This document shows, piece after piece, positions 2,273-51,389 of a DNA stretch of 64,000 bases. Each line of letters starts with the position of its first letter. Positions within the stretch are counted from its first letter, which is position 1. The notes under the pieces were generated by a model. That model searched no databases. It had not been told where the DNA came from and worked only from the letters and a program-made list of their open reading frames with translations. The stretch comes from an uncultured Pseudomonadota bacterium (lineage in GTDB: Bacteria > Oederibacteriota > Muellerivitia > Muellerivitales > Muellerivitaceae): contig CAWJKT010000011.1 in the NCBI GenBank assembly GCA_963843375.1, forward strand, positions 96,001 through 160,000, given 5' to 3'. The position numbers and the translations under genes are program-made.

Positions 2273-2884
2273 ATGACGAAGCTCATCAATGAACAAAAAC
2301 ATTCGGACCAGCGCATGCGGCTTTTGTCGCACGCCCGGCGGTTGATTGCCAACCAAGGGTTCAAGGAAACAAGCATGGCTCAGATCGCCAAGGCCTGCAA
2401 GGTGACCAAAGCGACCCTCTACCATTACTTCAAAAGCAAAGAGGCGATTCTTTTGGCGATCTTGGGATGCCACGAGGATGAAATGGAATCGCTCAAGGGT
2501 GAACTAGCCAAAGCCCACAACCTCAAGGAGGTTTTTTACGCCATCGCCCATAACCACATGGAAAGAATGGGCCGTCCCGAAAACCTGGAATTTCTCAAGA
2601 TCCTCGTGAACGAGTCCATGACCAATCCGGGAGTGAAAAAATTCTATCTGGGATTCATCAAGGAATCCCTTACTACGGTGGCCCGAGACATCCTGGCACC
2701 TTTTGTGAAGGAAAGATTAAACGAAGTGGAGATCCGGCGGACCTATTTCCAATTTCTAGGAGCGCTATCTCATTACACCTGGCAGGTGAAAATGGTCGGT
2801 GGGTTATCTGACATCATCGGGGACGACGAATCTTATATCCGGCTTTTATCGAAGGTTTACGCGAACCAGTTCATGAACGGATAA
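2273..2884 (+). CDS. TetR/AcrR family transcriptional regulator
   Basis: N-terminal HTH GFKETSMAQIAKACKVTKATLYHYFKSKE. Confidence 0.95.
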   Translation: MTKLINEQKHSDQRMRLLSHARRLIANQGFKETSMAQIAKACKVTKATLYHYFKSKEAILLAILGCHEDEMESLKGELAKAHNLKEVFYAIAHNHMERMGRPENLEFLKILVNESMTNPGVKKFYLGFIKESLTTVARDILAPFVKERLNEVEIRRTYFQFLGALSHYTWQVKMVGGLSDIIGDDESYIRLLSKVYANQFMNG

Positions 2885-3001: not shown

Positions 3002-3556
3002 ATGAACGATTTTCGACAAGCAGAGGCTTTCCAGGCTTTTGTGGCGGAACACCGGGAACTGTGGGTGCGCTTGGCGCGCCGGGTTCTGGGAAACCGGGAG
3101 GAAGCGGAAGACGTGGTCCAGGAAACCCTGGCCATCCTTTGGGAACGCCGCGAGGAGTTGGAGATCGAGAATCCCGGTGCCTACACGGCCCGGGCGGTTT
3201 GGCTGAACGCGCTCAAGCGAGGGGCGAGACGTAAATACCATCTCCCTTTGGAGATGGCCGAGTCGGCGGACATGAAAAGGTTGGGGGAATATTTTCTCCC
3301 GGCGCCGGTGGATCTCCAGGACCTGGAAAAGGCCCTGGAGAATCTTCCGGAGGCCCAGAAGACGGTCCTTAGGATGAAGTATCACCTTGGATTGTCCTTC
3401 AAGGAAATTGGCGAGGCTTTAGAGATTTCCTTGAACACGGCGGGCAGCCGCTGCCGTTACGCCCTGGGGGCCTTGAGGGCCGCCCTGGGAGCCCATCGCC
3501 ATCTGCCGAAGAGGCCGAAAGGCGGCCCCGGATCAAGAGGAGTGTCAGATGAGTGA
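3002..3556 (+). CDS. ECF RNA polymerase sigma factor
   Basis: Region 2 EAEDVVQETLAILW; region 4 LPEAQKTVLRMKYHLGLSFKEIGEALEISLNTAGSR. Confidence 0.9.
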   Translation: MNDFRQAEAFQAFVAEHRELWVRLARRVLGNREEAEDVVQETLAILWERREELEIENPGAYTARAVWLNALKRGARRKYHLPLEMAESADMKRLGEYFLPAPVDLQDLEKALENLPEAQKTVLRMKYHLGLSFKEIGEALEISLNTAGSRCRYALGALRAALGAHRHLPKRPKGGPGSRGVSDE

Positions 3557-4007
3557 GGAATTAAAAAATCCGCAGAAGATCCACGCGAACGTTTTGTTTG
3601 GAGAAGGAAACCATATCGCTGTGACGGGAATTGTCGGGGGAGTCGTGCTGGCCCTGGGTTTTTCCTGGATTGTATTGGCTTACGGCCAGGCTTTGGGCTC
3701 GACCCTATTGGTGATTTTCGTCCTTTCGGGGCTCATCGCCGGAGGGCTGGTGGCCTTGACTTCCGCCTTTTTCGGCCTAGTCATGCCCCGCCAAGTGGAT
3801 GGGGGTGCGCCCGGCGCGATCAAGGACTGGATTCGCTTGGGGCTGGAACGGAAAAATTGGAGCGAAAAAGATTGGAAGGATTGGGCGGAGGGCAGCGATG
3901 AGCCTGATGCTGATTGGTCCGAACCCGACGTCCAAAATTGGACCCTGCAGGATTGGAAGGCTTGGGGCGAAAAGATGAAGGCGAAGTACAAGGGAAAGTC
4001 ATTCTAG
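3549..4007 (+). CDS. Two-TM membrane protein with Trp-rich C-terminal repeats, candidate anti-sigma/partner
   Basis: Overlaps the sigma stop; two hydrophobic segments; repeats NWSEKDWKDWAE and NWTLQDWKAWGE. Confidence 0.7.
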   Translation: MSEELKNPQKIHANVLFGEGNHIAVTGIVGGVVLALGFSWIVLAYGQALGSTLLVIFVLSGLIAGGLVALTSAFFGLVMPRQVDGGAPGAIKDWIRLGLERKNWSEKDWKDWAEGSDEPDADWSEPDVQNWTLQDWKAWGEKMKAKYKGKSF

Positions 4008-4031: not shown

Positions 4032-4070
4032 CGTTACATTTGGTTACAAACCGAAACAAGGCTGAAAAGC
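4032..4070 (+). promoter_or_regulatory. OmpR-family response regulator binding box upstream of tolC
   Basis: GTTACA-N4-GTTACA-N4-GAAACA with 10-bp period; 33/39 identical to 46394-46432; TATATT -10-like hexamer at 4091. Confidence 0.75.
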
Positions 4071-4155
4071 AAAAAGTCTTGATCTGGTTTTATATTGAAG
4101 CGAGGCAAGGATGGGATGGCTTGCGGTTTTAAATCGAGCAAGGTGGAACGGGAAC

Positions 4156-5622
4156 ATGGGAAAGCGATTTGGGCTGGTAATGGCTTTATGGCTGGCGGCA
4201 GGAGCGGCTTTCGCCCAGCAAAAACTGTCGCTGGAGGACTACTTGGGGCAGGTACAGTCCCAGGGAGCGGATTACCAATCCTCCCAGGCAGCCGTGGAAG
4301 GCTATGAGAAACAGTCCCACCAGCAGGATCTGACTTATTCGCCCCAAATGGTGGCCGGTTATAACCATTTGGACGACAAAGAACAGCCCAATGGCCTCAG
4401 CTATCCCCACGCACTGACGGACACGGCGGGAGTCTCCTTTACGGACAAATTACCCTTCGGGCCATCCCTTTCGGTGGGTTACGCTTTTACCAACTTTAAC
4501 GCCAGCGTTAATCCTGAATTGAACGACATTGTCTTTAACGGGGTATCACTGGGGAGTGTTTTCCCCACTTCCTATTACCAGGTAGCCCCGGTGATCTCGC
4601 TTTCGGTGCCTCTCTTGAAGGATTTTGGGGGCGCCCAGACTAGCGCGGGGGTCCACCAGGTCCAGTACCAATTTGAATCCTCGGCCAGTTCCGCGGCTTA
4701 CCAAAGTGCCCAGGCGCTTTACAACGCCAAGGTGGCCTATTGGAACTTGGCACTTGCCCGGACCCAAATCAAAATCTATCAGGACACTCTTGACCGCAGC
4801 CAGCAGATTTGGGATTGGACCAAGCGGCGCGTGGCGCGCAACCTAGCCGACCCGCCCGACGCCTTGCAGGCCGAGGCCTCGGTACGGCTGGCCGAATTGG
4901 ATTTGGAACAGGCGACCGAGAGCGAAAGATCGGCCCGGCTCCAATTCAACCGTTACCGTGGGACGCGAGAGGACAATGTTCCCGAGCAACTGGATAACCT
5001 CGACGACTCCCTATCGGGATTAAAAGTGGAACTCCCCGCCGCCTTGCCCGACCGCTTGGACCTGAAAGCCACCCAAAAAACGGCGGACAGCCAAAAAGCC
5101 GCTTACGATCAGGCTGCTCAAAATATTTATCCCGATATCACCCTCAACGCCTCCTGGCGGGGGAACGGATTGGACCCCACCTTTGAGCCCGCCGACCAGA
5201 CGGCCTGGGCCTTCAATTATCCCACTTGGAACATCGGCGCCCAGTTCAACCTTCCGCTGGATGTCTTCACGGCTTCCCGAGTGGCCGAGGGCTACAAGCG
5301 GACTTACGAGAGCGCGGTCCTGAGTTTGAAGGACAAGCAGTTGGAAGTAGGCCAAGACTGGCAGGATTGGCGCAACCGAATGACCGACGTGGACAAACGC
5401 CTCGCCATGACCACCGAAATCGAGGAAATCCAGAAAAACAAGGCGGATCAGGAGAGAAAACGACTGGAGTTCGGCCGCACCACTGAGTTCCAGCTTTTGT
5501 CCTTTGAGAACGACTATAACGCCGCGCGCTTGAACCGCCTGGCGGTCATCGCGGAAAAACTGAACCTCCTGGCCCAGGCCCAATGGTGGCTCTCGACGGA
5601 AAAAGAAAGTTCTAAGTTTTGA
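4156..5622 (+). CDS. TolC family outer membrane efflux protein
   Basis: Signal peptide MGKRFGLVMALWLAAGAAFA, LSLEDYL start of mature protein, OEP-type helical repeats (VKVAYWNL-like NAKVAYWNLALA, RLEFGRTTEFQLL). Alternative start at 4111. Confidence 0.88.
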   Translation: MGKRFGLVMALWLAAGAAFAQQKLSLEDYLGQVQSQGADYQSSQAAVEGYEKQSHQQDLTYSPQMVAGYNHLDDKEQPNGLSYPHALTDTAGVSFTDKLPFGPSLSVGYAFTNFNASVNPELNDIVFNGVSLGSVFPTSYYQVAPVISLSVPLLKDFGGAQTSAGVHQVQYQFESSASSAAYQSAQALYNAKVAYWNLALARTQIKIYQDTLDRSQQIWDWTKRRVARNLADPPDALQAEASVRLAELDLEQATESERSARLQFNRYRGTREDNVPEQLDNLDDSLSGLKVELPAALPDRLDLKATQKTADSQKAAYDQAAQNIYPDITLNASWRGNGLDPTFEPADQTAWAFNYPTWNIGAQFNLPLDVFTASRVAEGYKRTYESAVLSLKDKQLEVGQDWQDWRNRMTDVDKRLAMTTEIEEIQKNKADQERKRLEFGRTTEFQLLSFENDYNAARLNRLAVIAEKLNLLAQAQWWLSTEKESSKF

Positions 5623-5712
5623 GTTTAAATTTTGAGTAAGGGGAGCTTTTGAACCTTTGGTTTAAAAGCTTGATTATTTATAAACTCAAAACCCAAAACA
5701 TTTAGTCTCAAA
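5616..5712. repeat. AT-rich nested inverted repeat in the tolC-RND spacer
   Basis: GTTTTGAGTTTA (5616-5627) and TAAACTCAAAAC (5681-5692) form a perfect 12-bp IR enclosing an inner hairpin at 5644-5670; extra TTTGAG/CTCAAA copies flank it. Confidence 0.7.
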
Positions 5713-5750
5713 CTGAATAGGGAACTAAAAGTGCTAAAGGAGCACAAATA

Positions 5751-8700
5751 ATGAATCTGCCTAAACTCGCCATCGACCGGCCGGCCTTCATCACTTGCGT
5801 GGCCATCCTCATCATGATTTTGGGCATCATGGCCTATCGGTCCCTCGGTATCGATCTTTTCCCCGATGTTAGCTTCCCGGTGGTTTCAGTCACCACAAAC
5901 TATAAGGGAGCGGCACCGGAGGAAATCGAGACACAGATATCCAAGCCCATGGAGGAGCAGTTTTCCTCCCTCCAGGGCGTCAAACAGATCAATTCCACCA
6001 ACCAGGAGGGCTATTCGGTGGTGACCGTCCAGTTCACCCTGGAAACGGACAGCAAGGAAGCGGAGCAAAGGGTGAGGGACAGCTTGTCCCTGGTGCGTCC
6101 CAAACTGCCCAAGGACGTGGAGGAGCCCGTCATCCAACGGTTGGACCCCTCGGACCAGCCCATCATGATCCTGGCATTGAAGTCCTCCCTCACCTCTCCC
6201 CAGGCCTACGATCTGGCCGATCAGTTTATCAAACCCCAGTTAGCCCAATTGAACGGGGTCGGCGTAGTGGACATTTTTGGAAGTTCCAAACGGGAAATCC
6301 GGGTGGAGTTGGATCGAAACAAGCTCAACGCTTACCACATTAGCGCCAGTTCGGTGGCTGACAATATCGGATTGAACGGCCAGAACATTCCCGTGGGCAA
6401 ATTCGAATTGAACGGCAAAAACATCCTTTTCCGTTCGGTGGGAGAATACAACGACTTGGATCGTCTGAGGCACACGGTGATTAATTTCGTGGGTTCGGAC
6501 GTACCCATTACGGTTGATAAAGTAGGGACGGTAGTCGACACCGTCGAGGACGCCCAAAATTACAGTTCCTTCAAGGGCGAGCCTTCACTGTTCCTGCAGA
6601 TCCACAAGCAAACCAAGGCCAATACGGTGGCGGTGGTGGACGAGGTCAAGGGGGCCATCGATTCCTTGAACGAACTGCTGAAAACCCGGCAGGGGGGCGC
6701 CCAACTTTCCCTAGTGCGTGAGGATGCTTGGGGCATCCGCTTGAATCTGGACGACGTCAAACAAACCATCTTCCTGGGCATCCTATTGACCGTCCTGGTG
6801 GTGCTGCTTTTTCTGGGAAGTTTCCGCTCTACATTAATCACGATCACCGCCCTGCCCACTTCGCTTTTGGGGGCCTTCATCCTGATGAATTGGATGGGCT
6901 TTACCCTGAATTTCATGACTATCCTGGCCCTTTCCCTCGCGGTAGGGCTTCTTATCGACGACGCCATCGTCGTGCGTGAAAATATTTGGCGGCACATGGA
7001 GGAGGGGGAGGAGCCGAAGAAAGCCGCCATCCACGGCACTATGGAAGTCGCCTTGGCGGTCGTGGCTACCACCGGTGTCATCATTGCCGTTTTTCTTCCC
7101 ATCGCCTTTTTGAAGGGCACGGTGGGCCAGTTCTTCAAACAATTTGGGATGACAGTCTGCTTTGCCATGGTCATCTCGTTGTTCGAGGCCCTCACCATGG
7201 GTCCCATGCTTTCCGCCTATTGGGCGGGGAAGAGGGGAAAAGCCGAATCCAAGCTGGCCTTTTTCCAATGGTTCGATGACCTTCAAACGCGCATGGAGAA
7301 GGGCTACGAGAAGGTCATCGGATGGAGCATCCACCACCGTAGGTGGGTCGTCCTCACGGCTTTCTTTATCTTTTTCGGAAGCCTGTTCTTGGGCAAATTT
7401 ATTCCCTTTACCTTTGTGCCCAATGCGGACAATCCGGAATTCCAAGTGACCTTGAAGGGCCCTCCCGACATGGCCCTGGACGCCACAAGGGATTTGACCA
7501 GCAAGATCGCGGCGATCGTCCGGGCCCATCCGGAGATCGACGTCACTTCCGAAGTCGTGGGGGATACTCAAGGAAACGAGAATGTCGCACTGATATACGC
7601 GAAGTTGATCAATTACCGTCTGCGCAAACTGACGGCCGCGGAACTGAAGGTCGCCATTCGGAAGGAATTGGAGCCCTACCGGCAGTTGATGCAACCCCAA
7701 GTGGGGGACCGGGATGCCTTGGGCAACCAGGCTCCCTTCAGCCTCGACATTGTGGGAACCGACTATAAAGTGCTGGAACCGGTGGTTGACCGTCTCAAAG
7801 AAAAGATCAAGGCCATCCCCGGGTTAGAGGACGTCGAGACCAATTACGACGGGGGGAAGGCGGAGTTCCAAGCCGTCCTGGATCCGGCCAAATGCCGCCA
7901 ATTGGGCGTTCTTGGACATCCAGGCGGGTGACGAGCTTCGCACCCAGATCGAGGGTACGGTCCCCGCCAAGTTTAGGGAGAACGGGCTGGAGTACGACAT
8001 CCGGGTGCGAATGCAGGAAGACCAGCGCAATCTCCAGACAGGACTTCAATGACGTTTACGTGCCCAATACCAATAACCGCATGGTCCGGCTCTTGGACAT
8101 CGCCCAACCGGTCACCACCGAAGGACCGTCCAAGATCAACCGTCTCAACCGCCAGCGCTATATCGAAATTACCGGGCAATTGGGCGCGAAGGGGGCTCTG
8201 GGCACCATCATCAACCAGGCAAAGGCGATCCTGGCGAAGGAAACCTTGCCGCCGGGCGTCACTTATAGTTTCGTGGGACAGGGCAAGGACCTGCAGGACC
8301 TCTCGATCAGCATGCTGGTGGCCATGGTTTTGGCTCTGCTTTTCACCTATATGATCCTCACCAGCCTCTACGACTCGCCCATCATTCCCTTTTCCATCAT
8401 GATTTCCATCCCCTTGGCCATCGTGGGGGCCTTCGTGGCTTTGCTGGTGACGGGCCAGAGCCTGAATATTTTCACCATGATCTCCCTTATCATGCTTATG
8501 GGGCTGGTGACGAAGAACGCCATCCTCTTGGTGGATTACGTGGTGCGCATGGAAGGCCAGGGGATGTCTCGGGACGAGGCCATCAAGAAGGCGGGAATCA
8601 TCCGCCTGCGGCCCATTCTCATGACAACAATGGCCCTCATCATGGGGATGATGCCGGTGGCCCTGGCCCTGAGCGAGGTCGGCAAGTTCCGCCAGTCCAT

Positions 8701-8875
8701 GGGCGTGGCGGTCATCGGCGGTCTCGTCAGTTCGCTCTTTTTGACACTAATCGTGGTCCCTTCGGTCTATGGATATATGGACGATTTAAGATTTTGGTTC
8801 CGGAACCTTTTCGGTCTGGGAGCCGATAAGCCTGTATCGAAAGGAAAGAATCCAAAGGCCGCAAAGGCAAAGTAG
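5751..8875 (+). CDS. RND efflux permease (AcrB/AcrD/AcrF family), interrupted by two apparent frameshifts (~7914, ~8040)
   Basis: MNLPKLAIDRP, GLLIDDAIVVRENI, GLVTKNAILLVDY and RLRPILMTT motifs; a third frame bridges the two ORFs (DIQAGDELRTQIEGTVPAKFRENGLEYDIRVRMQEDQRNLQ). Confidence 0.92.
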
Positions 8876-8995: not shown

Positions 8996-9616
8996 ATGCT
9001 TCAAGCTATCAAGGCTTTCGCCCTCTTGGGGGGCGAATGGGTTCTTTACATTCTTTTGGGACTGTCCATCTGGAGCATTGCTGTCATTTGGGACCGGTTT
9101 TTCCTTTTCAAGAAGAAAGTCCAGGATACGGAACTGTTAGAGGAGAGGGTGCCGGACCTGCTTTCGAAAGGAAACATCAAGGAAGTCCAAAAACTCGTCG
9201 AGAATACGGCTTCACCCGCGGGCGCCATCCTGAAAGTGGGCTTGGCCAACCTTTCGGCGGGACCGGAAGCCCTGGGGCAAATCCTTGAAAGCCAAAGAAT
9301 CCACGAAAAAATGGTGATGGAGAAAAACCTGTTGGTACTGGGTACCCTGGGCAGCAACGCGCCTTTTATCGGCCTGTTCGGGACCGTCTTAGGAATCATC
9401 AAGGCCTTCAACGATCTGGCTTTGGCGGGCACTTCCGGACCCACAGTGGTCATGCGGGGGGTTTCCGAGGCCCTGGTGGCCACCGCCGTGGGCCTCCTCA
9501 TCGCCATTCCCTGTGTGGCCACTTATAACTATTTCCAAAATCTGGTTAAGCTTTCGCTGGCGAACTCCGACCGACTTTCGGGCCTATTGTTGGCCTATGT
9601 CCAAAGGAAAGACTAA
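8996..9616 (+). CDS. exbB: MotA/TolQ/ExbB proton channel protein
   Basis: [24 protein letters not shown] and [18 protein letters not shown] motifs; AGGAGG RBS. Confidence 0.92.
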
Positions 9617-9619
9617 GAC

Positions 9620-10024
9620 ATGGCTGCTTCCACCCATGATCCGGATGAGCCCATCACGCAAATCAACGTGGTCCCGCTGGTTGACATTATGCTGGTGCTT
9701 TTAATCATTTTCATGCTGACCGCCAGTTTCATCGCCACCCCTTCGGTTCCGGTGCATCTGCCAAAATCCTATAGCACCGATCCTTCCCTTCCCAGAAGCA
9801 TCTCCATCGTTTTGAACACGAAGGACGAACTCTTTTACCAGGGCAAGAAAACCGAAAAAACTGATTTGTCCACTCAACTGAAGGAATCTGCCATCACGAA
9901 CCCCGAATTGCGGGTGGTACTTTCCGCCGACGGTTCGGTGGACTACCAGAAGGTTATGGAGGTTTTGGATTTAGTTCGCCAAGCGGGGGTCAGCCAGGTC
10001 GCCCTGGGAGCGGAGAAACCGTGA
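9620..10024 (+). CDS. exbD: ExbD/TolR biopolymer transport protein
   Basis: INVVPLVDIMLVLLIIFM and LSADGSVDYQKVMEVLD motifs. Confidence 0.93.
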   Translation: MAASTHDPDEPITQINVVPLVDIMLVLLIIFMLTASFIATPSVPVHLPKSYSTDPSLPRSISIVLNTKDELFYQGKKTEKTDLSTQLKESAITNPELRVVLSADGSVDYQKVMEVLDLVRQAGVSQVALGAEKP

Positions 10025-10614
10025 AACACCGAGACTTCCTTTCCCTGCCTCCCTTACCCTGGGCCTTGTCCCTAGGAACCCACCTGGCCTTTATCCTGGC
10101 AGTGTTTTTGGTGGGGCACACGCACTTCCTTGACATGACTACGGTCACAATGGATTTCGCTCCCTCAAAGGTATCGTCCCTTTACCAACCGCCGAAGGAG
10201 GATATCTGGCAAAAGCCAATGCTCCGAAGGATGAGCCGCCTTCCCATTCCCAAGCCCAAAGTGGTGCCGACTCCCCCGCCCGCCGCTGCCCAAGTGTCCG
10301 AAGTGGGACAGGGAAGCGGTGCAATTCGGTCCGTTGCCCAAGTCAGTCAATTGCCCCGTTTCATCAACCAGGTCAAGCCCCTTTACCCGGATTCCGCCAA
10401 ACATGCGGGCATTGAGGGCGTTGTGATATTGCAAGTGGACATCGACGCCACGGGTGCGGTGATGGATGTGGAAGTACTCCAAGGTCTGGGATCGGGTTGC
10501 GACGAGGCGGCAGTGGCGGCCATGAAGCAATCGACCTTCACACCCGCCTATGCGGGCTCGGAGCCGGTGCCGGTGAGGATCAAGATACCTTACCGGTTTG
10601 AGATTAACGGATAA
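10021..10614 (+). CDS. tonB: Energy transducer TonB
   Basis: TM with SLGTH (SxxxH), Pro-rich linker, C-terminal domain PLYPDSAKHAGIEGVVILQVDIDATG. Confidence 0.9.
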   Translation: MKHRDFLSLPPLPWALSLGTHLAFILAVFLVGHTHFLDMTTVTMDFAPSKVSSLYQPPKEDIWQKPMLRRMSRLPIPKPKVVPTPPPAAAQVSEVGQGSGAIRSVAQVSQLPRFINQVKPLYPDSAKHAGIEGVVILQVDIDATGAVMDVEVLQGLGSGCDEAAVAAMKQSTFTPAYAGSEPVPVRIKIPYRFEING

Positions 10615-10676
10615 AACCATAGTTAAATTGCTGTCATTGATGGGATGAAAGCTATTAACTCTAAAAAGGGATAGCG

Positions 10677-13037
10677 ATGAAAATTTCGGTAATTAAATCA
10701 TCCCTTTTGATCTTGTTCCTATTAGGTTCCTGGAATTTCGTTCAAGCCCAGACGCCCAGCCCCGAAACAACTCCTACCGGCGTCCTTTATCAACTCTCGG
10801 GACGAATTCTCGAAAAGGGAAACCGGGCTCCGGTTATCGGGGGCAGCCTTTACTTGGAGGCGTTGGGTAACACTCTTACGCCCGAATCCACTCCCGCGAC
10901 CGGGGAAACTTCAACGACCCTTGCCTCCTATTCCGCCGACGCGGATTTGAAAGGGAACTACAAGCTTTCGGTTCCGCTGGGCACTTACCGTCTGACGGTC
11001 GCAGGGGAGGGGTTCAAGAAAGTCACCTTGGCTTCTTTCGAACTCACCCGGGAAATGAGTAAAAATTTTTATCTTGAAAGGGACGGATTCACTTTGCCGG
11101 AAGTGATTGTCACCACCGATAAAATCCCCAAAACCCAGGTCAGCCAGGAATCCCTCTCGAAACAGGAACTGACGAACGTGCCCGGAACTCAAGAAGATGT
11201 CCTCAAGGCTCTCCAAGCCTTGCCGGGGGTCATCACCGCCGGTTCTCTCGACGGCCAGCTTTTGGTGCGGGGCAGCGGGCCCGACGACAACCAGTATTAC
11301 GTGGACAACGTACCCATCGCCTTTCCCTACCACTTCGGGATCGTCTCAACACTGGATTCAAACCTGATCAAGGACATCGATTTTTATTCCGGAGGCTTCG
11401 GACCCCAGTTTCCCAATTCCATGGGAGGCTTGGTGGATCTGACCCAGCGGGACCCCCGCTCCGACCGGTGGGGTTTCCGCGAGGACGTGAACCTTTTCCT
11501 TTCCGAGATGGAACTCGAAGGGCCCGTAACTTCCGATAGCTCCCTGGCCCTTGCTGGGCGCCGCAGTTACCTGGACCTTTTCCTAAAGGATTTTTCGGGC
11601 AGCCAGGGTGATATCGAAGTGCCCGTCTTCAGCGATTACCAGGTGAAGTACAGTATCAACCCCTCCCCCCAAGTACATTGGGATTTCGTCGCCTTCGGAA
11701 GCGCCGACACCGTCAGCGGATCCATCTCCGCCGCGGCCACCGAGGCCGTCAACGACCCCGATTTGGCGGGGGCCTTTGACTTCAGTGACGGCTACAACAG
11801 CCAGGGAGTGAATTACCGGGACACTTCCGACCCGCAAAACACCATCGCCAACACGGCCTACCACACCAACAGCTATTTCAACTTCAACCTGGGGCCCGGT
11901 CTTTATGAGGACAATAGCATCGAGGATTTCGGGGACAAGTTTTCCGTCAAGCACGAGTTTGATTCCGACACCAGCCTGGAAGGAGGCGTCCAATACGACC
12001 ATTTCATCGATTCCTTGAACGCCTTTTTCGTGATTGAACCCAGTGAAAGTGAATACCAGAATTTCAACCTGACCACCGCCAGCAAATTTATTTCCCAGGA
12101 CCAGACCAATTCCAATGACGCCTCCGCCTACCTGGACCAAAAATTCAAAGCGTTCAACAGGAAACTGGAATTTTCTCTGGGGGCCCGCTTGGATTACGTG
12201 GATTCGGACGCGATGGTTTACCTCACGCCGAAGCTTTCCACCGCCTACCATTTGACGGACGATGCCACTCTCAAGGCTTCTTTCGGCTATTACGACGAAG
12301 CGCCGGATAGGATCATCGGGGCACCCTACCTGGATCAAACCCTCGGAAACCCCCATTTGGCGCCGCAACAATCCATTGCCACCGTCCTAGGAGTGGAACA
12401 AAAACTGGATTCCTCGGGGCTGCTCTTCCGGGTGGAAGGATATAACAAGGAATTTTCCAGCCTGATCGTCTCCAACCCGGATAGCATTCCGGGGGAGGGC
12501 TACCTGAACAGCGGCACGGGCTACGCCCGGGGTGTTGAGTTTTTCCTGCGCCAGCCCCCGACATCGCGGTTTTTCGGTTGGATCGCCTATTCCCTCAGCA
12601 CCTCCCAACGGCAGGATGCTCCCGGAGGCTACATTTATCCCTACGAGTATGATGAGCCCAATGTCCTGACCGCCGTGGGAAATTACAAGTTGAACCCGGG
12701 CTGGGACATGGGATTCAAGGTGCTTTACTCCACCGGCCATCCCTGGACCCCGGTTATATCCGCCCCCTCAACAGTCATCGCCGGGCCCACGACCATATAC
12801 GACCCGCAATACGCCTCCACCGATTCCGCCCGGCTTCCGGATTACTTCCGGGTGGATTTTTCCACCTCTTTCAAGACCGTTTACGACACCTGGGAATGGA
12901 AGGTTTATCTGGATATCGTCAATCTTTTCCACGCCCAAAACGTCCTGGGATATCAATACAACAGCAATTACACCCAAACTACGGCGGTCCTGGACTTGCC
13001 CTTTTTGCCCTACCTAGGGGTGGAAGTGACCTATTAG
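10677..13037 (+). CDS. TonB-dependent receptor with N-terminal carboxypeptidase-regulatory-like domain
   Basis: Signal peptide; plug motifs DVLKALQALPGV, LLVRGSGPDDN, FYSGGFGPQF; barrel end RLPDYFRVD...NLFHAQN...LGVEVTY. Confidence 0.9.
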   Translation: MKISVIKSSLLILFLLGSWNFVQAQTPSPETTPTGVLYQLSGRILEKGNRAPVIGGSLYLEALGNTLTPESTPATGETSTTLASYSADADLKGNYKLSVPLGTYRLTVAGEGFKKVTLASFELTREMSKNFYLERDGFTLPEVIVTTDKIPKTQVSQESLSKQELTNVPGTQEDVLKALQALPGVITAGSLDGQLLVRGSGPDDNQYYVDNVPIAFPYHFGIVSTLDSNLIKDIDFYSGGFGPQFPNSMGGLVDLTQRDPRSDRWGFREDVNLFLSEMELEGPVTSDSSLALAGRRSYLDLFLKDFSGSQGDIEVPVFSDYQVKYSINPSPQVHWDFVAFGSADTVSGSISAAATEAVNDPDLAGAFDFSDGYNSQGVNYRDTSDPQNTIANTAYHTNSYFNFNLGPGLYEDNSIEDFGDKFSVKHEFDSDTSLEGGVQYDHFIDSLNAFFVIEPSESEYQNFNLTTASKFISQDQTNSNDASAYLDQKFKAFNRKLEFSLGARLDYVDSDAMVYLTPKLSTAYHLTDDATLKASFGYYDEAPDRIIGAPYLDQTLGNPHLAPQQSIATVLGVEQKLDSSGLLFRVEGYNKEFSSLIVSNPDSIPGEGYLNSGTGYARGVEFFLRQPPTSRFFGWIAYSLSTSQRQDAPGGYIYPYEYDEPNVLTAVGNYKLNPGWDMGFKVLYSTGHPWTPVISAPSTVIAGPTTIYDPQYASTDSARLPDYFRVDFSTSFKTVYDTWEWKVYLDIVNLFHAQNVLGYQYNSNYTQTTAVLDLPFLPYLGVEVTY

Positions 13038-44442: not shown

Positions 44443-44593
44443 GTGTTTGACGCGAACGAGGAACCGTAGGTAAGAGGGGGTTTTAAAGGAGGACAACTGC
44501 GCTTTCAAGAACGCCAGTGCTTTATCCATAGGAAAAGACTAAACGCCACCCTCCGGATGGTCAAGCTTTTTCGTGGAACTTTGGGCGAAGAGG

Positions 44594-45643
44594 TTAAAGG
44601 GGAAAATAAAGGGTTACTTTTGTTCCATGGCCGGGTTCGCTTTCAAGCCTGATGTCCCCGCCGTGGGCGAGCATGATTTCCCGGCAAAGGCTTAAACCCA
44701 ATCCATAGCCGCCGGTGTCCTTGGTGCGGGACTTATCCACCCTGTAAAAGGGTTCAAAGACCTTTTCCTGATCCTCCGGGGAGATGCCCTGACCGTAATC
44801 CTGAACGGTGATCAGCACTTCCTTTTCACCGGATAAGAGGCTGACTTCCACTTGCTTTTTCCGCCCCGCCGAATATTTGAGGGCATTTTCCAATACGTTT
44901 TGCAAAACGGTTTTGACCCTGGCTTCGTCGACTTGGACAACAAGTGTAGTTGGCTTTACCCACCATGGTTACTGCCGGTTTGCGGGTTTTTAAATTTGTC
45001 CAGGGTCTCCCGGGCTAGGACGACTAGGTCCAACGGCGCCAGGGCTAATTTTCCATTGCCGTTTTTCAGACGCTCGGTTTCCAGGAGTTCGGTGATCATC
45101 GTTTCCATTTCTAAAACGTCCCGCAACATGGAATCCTTCATCTTGCCCTTAGGGGTCATTTCCAAGGCCACCTTGAGGCGGGTCAAGGGGCTTCGGAGCT
45201 CATGGCTGACATCCAGCAGAAGTTGATCCTTGGACTGCATCATTTCCCGAATCCGCTGGACCATCAAATTGAAGCTCTCCGCCAGGTAATGGATTTCGCC
45301 ATGGCGCCCCTTTGCCTCGAATTGGAAGTCCAGGTTGCCCTCGGAAACCTCCTTGACGCCCTTCAAAAGCATGCGCAAGGGGCGGAACATCCGGCGCAAC
45401 ATAAAAAAGAAAGGCACCATGACCAACAGGGTCCAGCCAAGGTAGATGGGGTAGGCGTTGAAGGGAAAAGCTGCCGTTGGAAAAAAAGGAAATCAGGGTC
45501 CAAATCACGCTGACCCAGAAGAAGAGCATGAAAATTCGCATGAAAAACCAATGACGGGGTGGACGTGTCCCTTGCCATGCCCAGGGGCCGCGACTATGTT
45601 TCCGGTAGGGGTAGGGACACCATTTTGGATTTTTATTTTCCAT
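44594..45643 (-). CDS. HAMP-domain sensor histidine kinase (two TMs, tiny loop); about three apparent frameshifts (~45467, ~44985, ~44955)
   Basis: H-box DVSHELRSPLTRL, N-box NVLENALKYS, G boxes DYGQGI and GGYGLGL spread across three track ORFs; start overlaps the response regulator stop. Confidence 0.85.
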
Positions 45644-46343
45644 GGTTCATTCCAACCTTGCCGATAAAAAGATAGCCCTCGCCCCACACGGTTTTGAAGA
45701 ATTTGGGATGGGCCGCAGGGTCCTTGAGTTTTTTGCGCAAGCGGCTGACAGCGATATCAATGGAACGGTTGAAGGCCTCACATTCGATGCCTTTTAGGTA
45801 TTCCATAATTCTATCCCGATTCATGACTATCCCTGGATTTCTCATGAAGAGGGCCAAGATTTCGAATTCGGTGGTGGTTAGACCCAAATCCTTGCCTTTA
45901 AGGGAAGTTGTCCGTTTGTCCAAATCCACCACCAAACCATCAGACTTCATCAGCCCTCCCGGGACGGGGGAGGGTGCTAGACGCCTCAGGACGCTTTGGA
46001 TGCGGGCCACCAATTCACGGGGCTCGAAGGGTTTTGGCAAATAATCGTCGGCCCCGATCTCCAACCCTACTACCCGGTCGGTGACGTCTCCACGGGCTGT
46101 CAGCATGATGATGGGGACTTTCGAGGTTTTGCGGATTTCCTTGCAAACCAAAAAACCGTCTTTGCCCGGAAGCATGACATCCAATATGACCAGGTCGGGA
46201 CTCCTTTTTTTCAGAAGGTCCAGGCCCTCGTTTGGATGGGTGGCCGCCATCACGGTCATTTCGAATTTCACCAGATAGCTTTTCAACAGCTCATTGAGTT
46301 TCTGATCATCGTCGATGATCAGAATTTGTTTTTTGGGAATCAT
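45633..46343 (-). CDS. OmpR/PhoB family response regulator
   Basis: IIDDD, LDVMLPGKDG, GADDYLPKPF, winged helix RSIDIAVSRLRKKL...TVWGEGY; start MIPKKQ at 46343. Confidence 0.95.
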   Translation of the reverse strand: MIPKKQILIIDDDQKLNELLKSYLVKFEMTVMAATHPNEGLDLLKKRSPDLVILDVMLPGKDGFLVCKEIRKTSKVPIIMLTARGDVTDRVVGLEIGADDYLPKPFEPRELVARIQSVLRRLAPSPVPGGLMKSDGLVVDLDKRTTSLKGKDLGLTTTEFEILALFMRNPGIVMNRDRIMEYLKGIECEAFNRSIDIAVSRLRKKLKDPAAHPKFFKTVWGEGYLFIGKVGMNHGK

Positions 46344-46393
46344 TGTTTTACCTTCTCTGGATTGTAACACGCGTGTTCCATCCCGGGCTCGAA

Positions 46394-46432
46394 CGTTACA
46401 CTTTGTTACAAAACGAAACATCGTTGAAAAGC
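46394..46432 (+). promoter_or_regulatory. OmpR-family binding box in the divergent RR / small membrane protein intergenic region
   Basis: GTTACA-N4-GTTACA-N4-GAAACA; 33/39 identical to 4032-4070; TATAAA at 46452. Confidence 0.78.
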
Positions 46433-46507
46433 TTTTTATTTCCCCACGCCTTATAAATCATCCATGGAAAGCTTAGGCCTTCCAATTGAAACTCAAGGAG
46501 AAATACG

Positions 46508-46825
46508 ATGGAACTTAACGAACAAGACAAGGAACGGATTATCGCGGAAGAAAAGCTTCGCATGGAAACTCGGAAAGAATTTTTCAAGGAAAATTTCGGT
46601 GGTATGCGCGGCATGGGACGCTGGGGAGGGGGCTGGAACGGTTATGGCTGCCATGGCCATCGTTGTGGCGGCGGGGTATTCAAAATTTTGATCCTGGGTC
46701 TGGTGATTTTCGGCCTCTGCCACCTTTGGCACCGGCCTTGCGGAGGTTGGGGGCCCGGTTATTACGGTAATCCCGCCTACCCAGCGGCCCCCCAAGCCCA
46801 GCCAGCGCCTCCGGCAAAAAACTAA
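46508..46825 (+). CDS. Small single-TM membrane protein with Gly/Cys/His-rich flanks
   Basis: AAGGAG RBS; charged N-terminal helix, GCHGHRC before and CHLWHRPC after the TM, Pro/Ala tail; followed by a terminator. Confidence 0.8.
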   Translation: MELNEQDKERIIAEEKLRMETRKEFFKENFGGMRGMGRWGGGWNGYGCHGHRCGGGVFKILILGLVIFGLCHLWHRPCGGWGPGYYGNPAYPAAPQAQPAPPAKN

Positions 46826-46907: not shown

Positions 46908-46948
46908 TTGACACTCCTGCTGATAATCAGTATTACTGACTATCAGCA
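46908..46948 (+). promoter_or_regulatory. marR promoter with tandem palindromic operators
   Basis: TTGACA at 46908; 31-bp near-perfect IR TGCTGATAATCAGT-ATT-ACTGACTATCAGCA made of two CTGA(T/C)(A/T)ATCAG sites. Confidence 0.75.
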
Positions 46949-46968
46949 AATTGAATTTGAGAGGCTCC

Positions 46969-47463
46969 ATGACCCCGATATTGAAATTGAAAAAATCCCT
47001 TCCCGAAGGCCATGAAATTCCGGAAGCCGTTCTGGATCGCATGGGATTCCTTTTGAGCCAATCCGCCCAAAAACTCAGGGAGGCCACCGAAGAAGCCCTT
47101 GAGTCCTATGGTCTTACTGGAAAACACCTGGGCATTATGGCTACTATCCGGGAAAAGGGATCATTACCCCAACAGGAAATTGGGAAGTGCATGCACGTGG
47201 ACCGAACTACCATGGTCGCTATCATTGACGATCTCGAAAAACTAGGTTTCGTGGAACGCAAGCCCCATCCCACGGATCGGCGAGCCCACATCATCTACCT
47301 GACCGCCAAGGGAAGAGAAACGCTTCCCCGGGCCATGCAACTGGGGTTGGCTGCGGAGCGAAAGTTTTTGTCGTTCCTCCCCGCGAACGACCGGAAGGAT
47401 TTGAGCCGGATTTTGAAACACTTGGTGTTGTCCCTTCATTTAGAAGCGATCAAGGAGAAATAA
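46969..47463 (+). CDS. MarR family transcriptional regulator
   Basis: VDRTTMVAIIDDLEKLGFVERKPHPTDRRAHIIYLTAKG. Confidence 0.93.
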   Translation: MTPILKLKKSLPEGHEIPEAVLDRMGFLLSQSAQKLREATEEALESYGLTGKHLGIMATIREKGSLPQQEIGKCMHVDRTTMVAIIDDLEKLGFVERKPHPTDRRAHIIYLTAKGRETLPRAMQLGLAAERKFLSFLPANDRKDLSRILKHLVLSLHLEAIKEK

Positions 47464-47467
47464 TTTC

Positions 47468-48831
47468 ATGAAACATATTCGATGGATCTCAGCGTTATTA
47501 TTCGTTTCGTTCCTCGGCTTGGCCCGGGCACAGGAAGGGGCTTCTCCTATTGTTTCAGGCAGCTTGACCCTGGAAGACGCCCAAAAGGAGGCTTTGGATC
47601 ATTCGCCTGTTTATCGAAAGGCCCAGGATGTTGAGCGGGAGGCTGGATGGAGTCAACTGGAAGCCGTCTCCGATGGATTCATACCGCATGTTTCCGCCAA
47701 GGGGCAGGATTTTTTAAGGGGTGATGCTATTAAATATGCGAGTGAGGAAGTGAATTTTGGGGGAACTCCCATCAACTTTCCCGAGAATTTTCCGGAAACC
47801 ACATTATCCTTAGACGCCAGTTTCGATCTCTTTGACGGATTCCGGAATATTCATAAATTGGATGCGGCTAATAACAGCCACGAAGCCGCCCGAATCCAAT
47901 CGGATTTTTCCCTTCTTCAACTGGAGGAAACGGTTCGCCTCAAGTTTTACGAATCCCAGGCTTCCCAGCTGCTTTCCGACATGGCGGACGAAAACGTGAA
48001 GACCTTGCAAGACCATCTGCGCATCGTCCAGGATCAGTTGGACAACGGTCAAGCCACCAAATACGACGTGCTTCAGGTGCAAGTGGAATTGTCCGAGGCC
48101 CAATCCGACAGATTACCGCGCATGACAATTTGACCTTGGCTCGGGAGAGCCTGGCCTTGGCGATGGGCCTGAAAAAAGATGACCGGCCCTTGTCGGGACA
48201 ATTGCCGGCTTTGGATGAGAATGAACTTTTAAAAATCGTCTCGGATGCAAATTTCAAGGACAGCCCGGATTTGAAAATCAAAGAACTTCAGGCCTTGGCG
48301 GCTGGGGACCAGAGCGCGGCTTCCCATAGTTTCTGGTTTCCGAAGGTTGCCCTTATCGGCGAATACCAGTGGTACGACAGCCAAAGTGTTGTCTTGTCCC
48401 CTTTTTCCCTAACCAACACAGGGAATTATCAAAACAGCTATTTCATCGGCGCTTCCGCCACTTGGGACTTATTGGATGGTGGACTTTCAGTGGCCAAGGC
48501 CAACGAGGCGGATGAAAAGGCCAAACAAGCAAAAGATGATTACGAGTCGGCTCAGCTCCAAACGCCTTACGATTTCGACCTTTGGAAAAGGCGGCTGGTT
48601 TCCAGCCTAGCCCTCTACAAAGCCAAACTGACGAATGTGGATACGGCCAAGGAAAACGCGAGATTGGCTACGTTGGGATTCAAGGCGGGCACACGCACAA
48701 CCAATGATGTTTTGACCGCGGAGTTTGACGAGTATCGTGCCTCAGCGGGGTTGGTTCAGTCCCAATTGGATGCGTTGGAGGCTCTCATTAATTTAGAATT
48801 CGTGACAGGAAAGAGGTTATCCCATGACTAA
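47468..48831 (+). CDS. TolC family outer membrane protein; one apparent frameshift (~48109)
   Basis: Signal peptide, LTLEDAQKEAL, LFDGF, GQATKYDVLQ; continues ITAHDNLTLARESL...FKAGTRTTNDVL. Confidence 0.85.
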
Positions 48832-49706
48832 GACGACACCTCACACCCCGGGAGACCAGGGGAAGAAAAAACCGATACTGCCGGTCATCGGCATTGTGGC
48901 GGCGGTGGTTGCCGCCTACTTCATCGTGAAAAACTATCGCTACGAGGGTACCGACGACGCCTACATTCAGGCCCACACTCTCATGTTGGCGCCCCGTATT
49001 GGCGGAACGGTGGAAAAAGTCATGGTCAACGAAAATGACAAAGTGAAAGCCGGACAACTCTTGGCCCAATTAGACGACCAGGATTATTCCACCGCTTATA
49101 GCCAGTCGGTGGCCGATCAGGCTTCCGTACAGGCGGACCTGGAACAGGCCGCCCAAGATTACCAGCGTATCGCCAAACTCTATCAGGAAGAGGCGGTCCC
49201 CAAACAGCAATTAGACGCCGCCGTGGCCCGTTACCATAATCTGGCTTCGCGCCTCAAGGCGGACGAAGCCAAGGCCGACCAAGCCAAAATCAACCTAACC
49301 TACACCCTGATCACAGCCCCCGAGGACGGCACCATCGCCAAGAAATCGGTCGAACCGGGGATGGTGGTTCCCCCGGGCCAGGCTCTTTTCGGGTTTGTCT
49401 CCTCCCAGGAGACGGTGGGTGACTGCCAATTTCAAGGAAACCCAGATTGCCCGTATCAAGCCGGGGCAAAAAGTGAACGTGGACGTGGACGCAGTCTCGG
49501 GCAAGAGTTTCGAGGGAGTGGTAGACAGTATTGGTTCCGCCACAGGATCGACCTTCACGCTTCTGCCCCCGGACAATTCCACAGGCAACTTCACCAAGGT
49601 GGTTCAACGCGTGCCCGTGAAAATCAACCTGGAAAATCTCTCGGCCGAGGATATCGACCACTTGGCGGCGGGTTTGTCCGCAATCGTGAACGTAAAGATA
49701 CATTAA
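48824..49706 (+). CDS. emrA: EmrA/HlyD family membrane fusion protein; one apparent frameshift (~49414)
   Basis: TDDAYIQA, ITAPEDGTI, then WVTANFKETQ and PPDNSTGNFTKVVQRVPVKI in the next frame. Confidence 0.88.
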
Positions 49707-49796
49707 AGGATTGCGCCTAAATCCAAGAGAGCATTTAAGTTATTTTTTCTAAAAGTCCCTTTTCTGCAGATAGATTGTTGATTTTAGGAGTCGCAA

Positions 49797-51389
49797 ATGA
49801 CTGAACAGCCGGAAAAAGGAATATCCCGGGCGGCGATGATGGTGGTCATTACCGCCGGCCTGGCGTCTCTTCTGGAAATCGTGGATACGTCCATCGTTAA
49901 CGTGGCCATTCCCACCATGATGGGCAACTTGGGAGCTACCCTGGATGAGATCGGTTGGGTGGTGACGGGATACATCATTTCCAACGCCATCATCCTGCCC
50001 ATTTCGGGTTGGCTTGGCAACCGGTTTGGCCGTCGGAAATATTACATCACTTGCATCCTGATGTTCATCGTCGCTTCGGTGGCCTGTGGCTTGGCCCCCA
50101 ACCTTTGGACCCTGGTCCTTTTCCGCGTTGTCCAAGGCGCCGCAGGTGGGGCGCTTTTGCCCACCTCCCAGGCCCTGATCCAGGAAGTCTTTCCGGGCAA
50201 ACGTTCCGGCCTTGGTAGCGCCCTTTATGGAATGGTGGTCATCATCGGCCCTACTATCGGTCCCCCTTTGGGGGGGTACCTGACCGACCATTTTGGCTGG
50301 CGCATGATCTTCAACATCAACCTGCCCTTAGGAATATTGGCCGCGTTCCTGGCGACCCTCTATGTGACGGACTATGCGGAGGATGGGGAACACGCTGCAG
50401 CCCGCCAAGCCATGAAAAGAGCCCCGGTTGACACCCTAGGCCTCACCTTTCTTATCGTGGGGGTCGGCTGTCTACAATACGTGTTGGAACGGGGTCAAAC
50501 GGACGACTGGTTTTCTTCACACCTTATCCTGGCCTTTAGCCTGACGGCGGCCTTTTGCATTCCGGCCTTCATTTGGTGGGAACTGACAACTGAACATCCC
50601 ATCATGGACCTTCGGCTTTATAAAAACCCCGCCCTCATTAACGGCACCATCATGATGGCCTGTGTGGGAGGGATGCTTTACGGCCTGATCTTTTTTATTC
50701 CTATCTTTGCCTCGACTATTCTGGGCATGGACGCGGGCCAGACAGGCAACCTTTTTACCCCCGGTGCTATCGCCTCGGGGGTGATGATGCCTATTATTGG
50801 AAGCCAATTGCGAAAAAGGGATCCGCGGCTTTTTATGGTCTTCGGTATTTGTGTTACCGATACGGCCCTGGTTCTGATCGCTCATTTCACCCCTCAGTCC
50901 ACTTATTGGAACCTATTCTGGCCCCTTCTGATCCGGGGGTTGGGCATGGCGGCGCTCTTTATTCCCATTAATGCGCTCGTCCTGGGAGGTTTCACAGGCC
51001 CGGCCTTGGGTCAGGCGGCCGGCATCATGAACCTGTCGCGGCAATTGGGCGGAAGCCTGGGAATCGCCATCCTTTCCACCATGTTTAACAAGTCCACGGA
51101 CGCCGCCTATGACCACCTTCGTCAGTACATCAGCCCCCTCAGCATGGGCTTCAGCCAATGGGCGCAGGGGGCCAAGGGTTTGGCCTTCCGGTTTTCCAAT
51201 GAGGTGGGGATTTATAACCCCGATAACCTTTTAATTAAGGAAGCCTATTTCCGAGTGAAGAAACAAGCATTCGTCATGGCTTTTGACCAGATGGGATGGG
51301 TGATGGTCATCGGGTTCGCCATCGCGGGTATTCCTATTTTTTTCCTGAAAAAACCCGAACATATGGGGAACCCAGCGGATGCGCATTAA
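49797..51389 (+). CDS. emrB: DHA2 family MFS efflux permease (EmrB-like)
   Basis: LEIVDTSIVNVAIP, WVVTGY, GPTIGPPLGGYLTDHFGWRMIFNINLPLG, VLERGQTDDWFSS. Confidence 0.92.
   Translation: MTEQPEKGISRAAMMVVITAGLASLLEIVDTSIVNVAIPTMMGNLGATLDEIGWVVTGYIISNAIILPISGWLGNRFGRRKYYITCILMFIVASVACGLAPNLWTLVLFRVVQGAAGGALLPTSQALIQEVFPGKRSGLGSALYGMVVIIGPTIGPPLGGYLTDHFGWRMIFNINLPLGILAAFLATLYVTDYAEDGEHAAARQAMKRAPVDTLGLTFLIVGVGCLQYVLERGQTDDWFSSHLILAFSLTAAFCIPAFIWWELTTEHPIMDLRLYKNPALINGTIMMACVGGMLYGLIFFIPIFASTILGMDAGQTGNLFTPGAIASGVMMPIIGSQLRKRDPRLFMVFGICVTDTALVLIAHFTPQSTYWNLFWPLLIRGLGMAALFIPINALVLGGFTGPALGQAAGIMNLSRQLGGSLGIAILSTMFNKSTDAAYDHLRQYISPLSMGFSQWAQGAKGLAFRFSNEVGIYNPDNLLIKEAYFRVKKQAFVMAFDQMGWVMVIGFAIAGIPIFFLKKPEHMGNPADAH

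Follow-up and report, generated by a model that had tools for sequence, protein, structure and literature searches.

Our analysis indicates that a 39-bp element present twice in the 64,000-nucleotide window (the whole stretch of DNA that was analysed, positions 96,001 to 160,000 of contig CAWJKT010000011.1 from an uncultured bacterium of the family Muellerivitaceae) is probably, at a likelihood that we put near 80%, an activator operator of the OmpR/RstA-like response regulator encoded beside its second copy, and that it would serve a multi-pump efflux regulon. The initial annotation of this DNA had proposed that the two copies, here called box 1 and box 2 and separated by 42 kb, represent one operator that connects two loci via the adjacent regulator, and this proposal, made from sequence, appears to be right at its core. 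Box 1 reads cGTTACAtttgGTTACAaaccGAAACAaggctGAAAAGc (4032-4070) and box 2 reads cGTTACActttGTTACAaaacGAAACAtcgttGAAAAGc (46394-46432). As had been reported, the two agree at 33 of 39 positions, all four hexamers are identical and each of the six mismatches falls in a spacer (two in the first, one in the second and three in the third). Both boxes consist of four direct hexamers, GTTACA-N4-GTTACA-N4-GAAACA-N5-GAAAAG, in which a (G)TTACA-like half-site is repeated directly in 10-11 bp phase, a geometry repeated at 29 family sites. The boxes and the genes on which the argument turns are:

4033..4069, plus strand: the four hexamers of box 1, starting at 4033, 4043, 4053 and 4064
4111..5622, plus strand: TolC-type outer-membrane efflux protein (OEP; Pfam OEP, 4.1e-25)
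5751..8875, plus strand: RND (HAE1-type) efflux permease (Pfam ACR_tran, 1.4e-175 and 1.2e-69; NCBIfam RND_permease_2)
45633..46343, minus strand: OmpR/RstA-like response regulator, the proposed box-binding protein
46395..46431, plus strand: the four hexamers of box 2, starting at 46395, 46405, 46415 and 46426
46508..46825, plus strand: small105, a 105-aa single-pass membrane protein downstream of box 2

Box 2 lies 50 nt from the start codon of the regulator and is directed away from the regulator gene, and it is unchanged in near-identical contigs from runs X2, X3 and X5. Chance is excluded as the source of the match between the two boxes. The window holds exactly 2 sites of the three-hexamer pattern at up to 3 mismatches, for which shuffled sequences give an expectation of 0.01, and the same 2 sites are the only ones found at up to 2 mismatches in the whole host assembly (G000; 4,051,312 bases in 32 contigs, 80% complete). 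A weight matrix built on 13 orthologous small105 promoters, with box 2 among the training sites, places box 1 second among the 8.1 million positions of G000 (63.4 for box 2, 43.4 for box 1, 20.2 for a site at position 126446 of contig C1, then 11.8 and 10.9). Rfam searches gave no match at box 1, and at box 2 only a sub-threshold match to atpB (14.5 bits vs 37.4).

Searching the genome and its relatives for the hexamer pattern, as the initial annotation had suggested, returned 2 sites in G000 and 29 in a family set of 31 genomes (G000 included; G001 belongs to the same genus). The four-hexamer pattern at up to 3 mismatches was used for the family, and the three-hexamer pattern for the window, the assembly and the genomes outside the family. 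The 29 sites are spread over 15 of the 31 genomes, with 1-4 in each; in a first scan of three hexamers, GAAAAGC, which formed no part of that pattern, was present at every true site. No genuine box was found in 30 genomes from other families of the phylum, where the two three-hexamer matches lacked the fourth hexamer. Small105 orthologues directly follow 13 of the sites, which bears out the earlier assignment of the box to the small Cys/His-rich protein at 46508, since it recurs in other genera. Two further sites stand one gene away from this pattern, one before a methyltransferase gene followed by small105 (G016) and one in G003 where a ferredoxin-like gene and a second box come between the site and small105. 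Efflux genes account for most other sites: five precede TolC-RND (G000, G001, G018, G023 and G025), one in G014, behind which the contig ends, was grouped with them, one precedes a string of ECF sigma factor, Trp-rich protein and TolC genes (G008), three precede MarR-OEP-HlyD-MFS operons (G003, G019 and G027) and two precede an operon of ABC ATPase, two FtsX and LolA-like genes (G014 and G025). Single sites lie before a YceI-like gene (G014) and a GT9-like gene (G027).

A check that avoids choosing sites by motif started from the protein, taking the 15 best small105 matches, one per genome, and inspecting their upstream regions. The box was found about 90 nt upstream of small105 in 13 of these 15 best orthologues and one gene further up in G016, and no box was found within 230 nt upstream of the G015 gene. 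In an unguided MAFFT alignment of the 15 upstream regions (A1) the box is the best-conserved block; its conserved parts are G-TAC, TGTTACAAA, G--AC and GAAAAGC, and the spacers are variable, with the exceptions of a T before hexamer 2 and an AA after it. Alignment and information profiles agree that the hexamers are kept and the spacers are free, whereas equal conservation of the two had been named beforehand as an outcome that would speak against an operator.

These data bear directly on the idea that the likeness of the boxes carries no regulatory meaning and is due to chance, to duplication of a promoter fragment, to a dispersed repeat or to a promoter of extracytoplasmic function (ECF) sigma type. 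Short A/T-rich repeats are common in intergenic DNA and a gene for an ECF sigma factor does stand just upstream of box 1, but none of 100 shuffles yielded 2 sites, the reversed control found 0 matches in every genome, likeness between the two loci ends at the box edges, and the box is retained at orthologous promoters in 9 genera, all of which makes this idea extremely improbable. A dispersed repeat, of the repetitive extragenic palindromic or miniature inverted-repeat transposable element kind, had been foreseen as a possible refutation and was rejected on copy number (2 copies in G000, 1-4 per relative), and the boxes are always aimed at a downstream gene. An ECF-sigma promoter was likewise dropped, the -10 element being TAnnnT and not ECF-like, and most boxes having no sigma factor gene nearby.

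The position of the boxes relative to the presumed promoters points to activation. The following elements lie next to them:

4091..4096, plus strand: -10-like TATATT, 21 nt after the last G of GAAAAG in box 1
46361..46369, minus strand: conserved TGTTACAAT (TGnTAnnAT, extended -10-like), between the regulator start codon and box 2
46452..46457, plus strand: -10-like TATAAA(T), 20 nt after GAAAAG in box 2
46466..46483, plus strand: stem-loop of 5-7 bp in the 5' untranslated region, where the small105 transcript is predicted to begin

The TATA(T/A) hexamer that had been noticed about 20 bp downstream of both boxes is thus present at 21 and 20 nt, respectively. Its offset was part of no search pattern, and a TA begins exactly 20 nt past GAAAAG in 25 of the 29 family sites and 21 nt past it in two, namely box 1 and its G001 counterpart; the hexamers at this position are TATAAA, TATCCT, TATTGT, TAAGGT and similar. 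At the -35 position box 1 has AGCAAA (2 of 6 matches to TTGACA) and box 2 has AAGCTT (1 of 6), and a sigma-70 consensus scan found no promoter at either box. A -10 element at fixed distance together with an absent -35 hexamer is the arrangement of an activator-dependent promoter, and without that hexamer RNA polymerase would depend on the bound regulator. The four direct hexamers, spaced at 10, 10 and 11 bp, would form two tandem 20-bp sites, probably occupied by two head-to-tail dimers of the phosphorylated regulator, and because the -10 hexamer is fixed 20-21 nt downstream the array would span about -72 to -34.

The same surroundings raise the question of sign, since the regulator could bind the box as a repressor or dual regulator, for example by silencing its own divergent promoter or by blocking polymerase, with the pumps derepressed rather than activated. 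The conserved TGnTAnnAT of the divergent regulator operon is about 25 nt away from box 2, E. coli OmpR is an activator as well as a repressor, with 12 repressed genes reported in PMC5438342, and TetR and MarR repressors are encoded locally at the pump operons. Nevertheless, the array always stands upstream of a -10 element with a TA start at a fixed 20 nt, in the place of the -35, a geometry expected of activator dependence and not of occlusion, and the orientation of the box toward the downstream gene is constant; a repressor or dual role is for these reasons improbable, and activation is preferred. The TGTTACAAT element is kept as attgtaacacg, attttagcacg or ttaacacg where the regulator adjoins the box, and may be either the promoter of the regulator-kinase operon or a fifth, inverted GTTACA half-site; a promoter role would leave the regulator-kinase transcript with a very short leader. 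In the small105 leader, single-sequence ViennaRNA folds place a hairpin at the same position in 11 of 12 orthologues. Its stems vary between genera (GGAAG/CTTCC, CGGGG/CCCCG, CTAGGG/CCCTAG, GGGAAA/TTTCCC) in a way that looks like compensatory change, and RNAalifold predicted zero pairs on the MAFFT leader alignment, in which the stems are out of register.

The protein that reads the box is most plausibly the response regulator encoded beside box 2. Its receiver domain (Pfam Response_reg, 8.5e-31) carries the acidic pocket (DDD 11-13), phospho-acceptor D55, T82 and K104, all aligned with BaeR, and its C-terminal winged helix matches Pfam Trans_reg_C (1.3e-21) over model positions 1-77 of 77, which places it in the OmpR/PhoB family. 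Among solved structures the DNA-binding domain is nearest to RstA (71.2 bits) and then to OmpR (65.6 bits), and the best full-length relative is BaeR (166.5 bits). The best NCBIfam model is OmpR (NF007005), whose 225.2 bits are below the cut-off of 331, so that the protein is no OmpR equivalog; it also fails as an RstA equivalog (NF007977, 171.6 bits vs 330) and is below the equivalog cut-offs for BaeR and CpxR, although by its predicted DNA specificity it would act as OmpR does. The initial annotation had described the GTTACA half-sites as OmpR-type, and the motif data in PMC5438342 and PMC7315122 agree, giving GTTACAnnnnGTTACA or GTTACATTTTGTTACAT as the motif that E. coli OmpR recognises and TACAtntngtTACA as that of RstA. 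The first two hexamers of the box (its first 16 bp, GTTACAtttgGTTACA) fit these published OmpR and RstA motifs exactly.

Box and regulator also travel together. In at least 10 genomes the box and the regulator gene are direct neighbours (G000, G001, G003, G008, G011, G014, G016, G019, G023 and G027; in G011 the regulator is split over two contig ends). Orthologues of the regulator, defined at 67% identity or more, occur in 14 of the 31 genomes, 13 of which have the box, and 15 genomes have neither box nor orthologue. The remaining orthologue, in G004 (67% identical), goes with a variant, GAAACA-N4-GAAACA-N4-GAAACC-N5-GAGAAG followed after 20 nt by TATCTT, which lies beside the regulator gene and faces an ABC-FtsX operon (locus L095, contig C82, about 2251-2293); here regulator and operator look as if they were changing together. 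It is conceivable that some other factor, an OmpR-family paralogue or an unrelated protein, reads the box and that adjacency to the two-component genes is inherited synteny, as G000 encodes 7 OmpR-family regulators in an assembly that is incomplete and G018 has a box without a regulator orthologue. However, the co-occurrence just described, with a variant box in the one orthologue-bearing genome that lacks the standard one, argues against it, as does the fact that the six other OmpR-family regulators of G000 share 23-29 of about 105 domain residues with this one and have different recognition helices, whereas its own domain matches RstA and OmpR, binders of this very repeat. We therefore regard a different reader as quite improbable and retain the adjacent regulator as the protein that would bind both boxes.

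Through that regulator box 1 would drive TolC-RND, and box 2 would drive small105 with possible read-through into the MarR-OEP-HlyD-MFS genes behind it. A two-hexamer site of G000, GTTACAttttGTTACA at C1:126446, is placed before the orthologue of the ABC-FtsX exporter operon and may be a further output. The regulon thus appears wider than initially annotated and would include EmrAB-like MarR-OEP-HlyD-MFS and MacB-like ABC-FtsX operons. At the TolC-RND pair the earlier proposal stands in part, as the box recurs before TolC-RND in other genera, at -73 to -84 from the TolC orthologues of G000, G001, G018, G023 and G025, but is confined to a minority of TolC loci. The loci of 24 TolC orthologues (57% identity or more) were scored with the matrix, which gave 39-46 in 6 of them and 6 or less in the remainder, so that the connection to TolC is a feature of only some family members. 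Six of the 33 TolC matches were omitted from this count, L075, L076 and L081 being partial and without the N-terminus and three others (39%, 35% and 59% identical) having no locus. Upstream of TolC orthologues, G020 (L063) has three GTTAC(G/A) hexamers in 10-bp phase at about 170 nt, without the GAAACA/GAAAAG half, and G005 has a two-hexamer remnant at -105; both resemble degenerate or variant versions of the box. For ABC-FtsX, hexamer pairs lie upstream of 8 of 17 loci (a second, partial G004 match, L163, being omitted), with the full box in G014 and G025. It had also been held that gene order alone would hide the link between the two loci, which is true only in part: in G025 the regulator adjoins the pair of ECF sigma factor and Trp-rich protein genes that precedes TolC in the window.

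Several observations weigh against this reading. No box is present at 18 of the 24 TolC orthologue loci, and 9 of the 17 ABC-FtsX loci have no hexamer pair, that of the same-genus G001 among them. The family sites were partly collected with the hexamers themselves, so that hexamer conservation is partly built in, and the family genomes are kin and non-independent samples. G018, which is 99% complete, has both a TolC box and an ABC-FtsX hexamer pair, and its closest match to the regulator shares only 42% identity, which means that another regulator can read the box or that the orthologue is unassembled. Activation is deduced from position alone, and box 2, which immediately precedes the divergent promoter of the regulator, might serve there for repression or autoregulation. 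Finally, the kinase gene is broken in three places in the window, and genuine breaks would mean that the circuit no longer works in this strain.

The second locus also holds the following genes and elements:

44594..45643, minus strand: histidine kinase, read in three frames (Pfam HAMP, HisKA and HATPase_c on three open reading frames)
46909..46948, plus strand: promoter TTGACA-17-TATTAC, overlapped by the palindromes CTGATAATCAG and CTGACTATCAG
46951..51389, plus strand: MarR, OEP, HlyD-type adaptor and EmrB-type MFS permease (Pfam; NCBIfam efflux_EmrB, 421.5 bits vs cut-off 230.2)

Not only the kinase is affected by frame changes. The OEP gene of this locus (47468-48831) changes frame near 48110, the RND gene of the first locus spans three frames and carries two bases more, near 7917 and near 8030, than the intact G001 gene (1043 aa), and the ABC ATPase gene on contig C1 of G000 (126561-127199, L135) is also split by single-base indels. 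These breaks in RND, kinase, OEP and ABC ATPase are either assembly errors or private to the strain. Near-identical contigs (~98.6-100%; four soil runs from one other study) lack one base each at 44958, 44984 and 45447 and have an additional T after 48110, changes that by frame arithmetic restore single frames for kinase and OEP, and their freedom from these indels suggests assembly errors, which may also be partly behind the completeness estimate of 80%. The kinase is intact in 10 relatives (alignment A2).

By its gene content the MarR-OEP-HlyD-MFS set is an EmrAB-like tripartite pump. The TTGACA-17-TATTAC sequence, of consensus-like sigma-70 type, is the own promoter of the MarR operon, and the two palindromes over it are presumed MarR operators; the arrangement of TTGACA and CTGAT is found in L020, L025 and L026 as well. 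Box 2 would reach the MarR operon only via read-through. A 571-aa polytopic membrane protein without match in Pfam or NCBIfam is encoded directly downstream of the kinase (42814-44529, minus strand); it is kept at the same place in G005 and G025 (74-79% identity) and possibly belongs to the regulator-kinase operon.

Box 1 in turn has three genes before it and, behind TolC-RND, a set of TonB-related genes after it:

2273..2884, plus strand: TetR-family regulator (Pfam TetR_N, 3.8e-18)
3002..3556, plus strand: ECF sigma factor (Pfam Sigma70_r2 and r4_2; NCBIfam sigma70-ECF, 74.8 bits vs cut-off 42.9)
3549..4007, plus strand: 152-aa Trp-rich membrane protein, overlapping the stop of the sigma factor gene
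8996..13037, plus strand: ExbB, ExbD, TonB and TonB-dependent receptor (Pfam)

An orthologue of the TetR gene stands directly upstream of box and TolC in G018, G023 and G025, and TetR is likely a local repressor of the TolC-RND operon. The box is found upstream of the orthologue of the ECF sigma factor gene in G008 and, weakly, in G025. The 152-aa protein has two predicted membrane helices and C-terminal W-x-x-D/E-W repeats, gave no match in Pfam and NCBIfam searches, and its gene always accompanies that of the ECF sigma factor in relatives, and we infer that it is a candidate anti-sigma factor. The true start of TolC is likely the ATG at 4156, which would yield a signal peptide; its relatives align from residue 6-22 onward, mostly from about 15. 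G018, G023 and G025 likewise have TolC immediately beside RND, the RND open reading frame of G025 is, at 1170 aa, above the usual length, and no gene for a periplasmic adaptor (membrane-fusion protein) was seen beside the TolC-RND pair (4111-8875). The initial annotation had extended the box 1 unit to exbBD-tonB and the TonB-dependent receptor, which finds no support outside the genus: these genes follow TolC-RND in G001 only, and G018, G023 and G025 do not have the arrangement. Because of this G001-only order, and of a 13-pair hairpin between TolC and RND (5643-5671), their place in the unit is doubtful. Further along, at 18074-18947, a 162-nt unit is repeated in tandem, in five to six copies that are 66-74% identical, and a repeat-domain protein is probably encoded there.

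What the system senses may be approached from the kinase and from small105. Intact kinase orthologues (A2) have a His/Trp/Arg-rich N-terminal tail that ends in PPRHWFF, two membrane helices, a HAMP domain and the kinase core. The loop between the helices has about 10 residues, which leaves no periplasmic sensor domain, and the kinase therefore probably senses within or at the membrane. Its cytoplasmic part fits the CpxA, RstB, MtrB and EnvZ NCBIfam models best, all below cut-off (CpxA, 182 bits vs 800; BaeS scores 146 vs 500). Small105 is the most constant member of the regulon and is usually divergent from the two-component genes. Its N-terminal amphipathic helix is followed by a Gly/Trp/His/Cys-rich stretch, a single membrane helix, the motif CHLWHRPxC and a Pro/Tyr-rich tail, so that segments rich in Cys, His, Trp and Gly flank the membrane helix on both sides. 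Searches of Pfam and NCBIfam gave no match for it and the protein atlas no usable one; among 5.8 billion proteins it falls in 44 clusters, none of them with a functional name (13 are labelled hypothetical protein and the others are nameless), and a related-locus search returned 5 relatives and one spurious match in Gemella.

The absence of a periplasmic domain in the kinase, the constancy and divergent position of small105, and the similar composition of the kinase tail HWGGGPW...PPRHWFF and of the small105 segment GRWGGGWxGYGCHGxRC, each placed before a (first) membrane helix, together raise the idea that small105 is the membrane partner of the kinase, as feedback modulator or co-sensor. Kinases with membrane or envelope partners are familiar from MgrB-PhoQ, CpxP-CpxA and LiaF-LiaS. 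We consider the partnership a speculative and rather unlikely one; a complex prediction of two copies of kinase residues 1-215 with small105 scored 0.00 in a run without controls, a value that weighs neither way. Were the partnership to hold, a membrane-embedded sensor of metal, redox state or membrane damage would preside over RND, MFS and ABC pumps. Distant small105 paralogues (L046, L047, L048 and L051, in G010, G018, G016 and G025, respectively) have no box upstream and show, in its place, conservation of a GTGGCTTGCTTCTTGCT-like element (TGGC-N7-TTGC, sigma-54 type) and of an upstream ctctcaatttgat, which suggests that the small-protein family is connected to two different stress circuits.

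The results provide a testable regulon for an uncultured soil lineage of a candidate phylum without cultured member; among the papers listed by a full-text search on the lineage, two-component systems and efflux, none dealt with its regulation, which is not proof of absence. One OmpR/RstA-like regulator appears to coordinate RND, MFS and ABC exporters together with an uncharacterised small membrane protein, and the GTTACA direct-repeat specificity of enterobacterial OmpR and RstA appears to be retained in a distant phylum. G004, with its 67%-identical regulator and GAAACA repeats, would be a natural specificity variant and a case of regulator-operator co-change.

Among known systems, E. coli EnvZ/OmpR, with its operators F1-F3 and C1-C3, is similar in its tandem direct repeats in 10-bp phase; OmpR sites there are likewise composed of several 20-bp units, arrayed upstream of about -40. 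It differs in that EnvZ has the periplasmic domain that the kinase described here lacks, and in its targets, which here are efflux pumps and a small membrane protein, with no porin genes seen beside any box. Promoters of the PhoB type likewise combine direct repeats upstream of the -10 with the absence of a -35 hexamer, the pho box replacing the -35. About 10 bp separate the end of the pho box from the -10, whereas here the last hexamer ends 20 bp away and there are four repeats, not two. The regulatory logic proposed here is similar to that of the enterobacterial envelope-stress systems BaeSR and CpxAR, in which one system drives unlinked pumps along with a small protein of the envelope (mdtABCD, acrD and spy; cpxP divergent from cpxRA), and BaeR and CpxA are, respectively, the best full-length solved relative of the regulator and the best model for the kinase. 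Unlike BaeS and CpxA, the kinase has no periplasmic sensor and falls short of orthology to either; CpxR binds GTAAA-N5-GTAAA, a motif different from the box, and small105 is a membrane protein without similarity to Spy or CpxP (no Pfam match). The closest precedent is RstA/RstB of Pseudomonas fluorescens, a two-component system from the same subfamily. As described in PMC8562477, it acts directly, and dependent on phosphorylation, on several RND pumps whose genes lie apart, switching on EmhABC and MexCD-OprJ. Since RstA/RstB, BaeSR and others activate unlinked pumps, the design principle is already known. The circuit proposed here differs from the Pseudomonas one in a regulon that would comprise RND, MFS and ABC pumps and small105, in a box of four hexamers vs TACA-N6-TACA, and in belonging to a lineage of another phylum.

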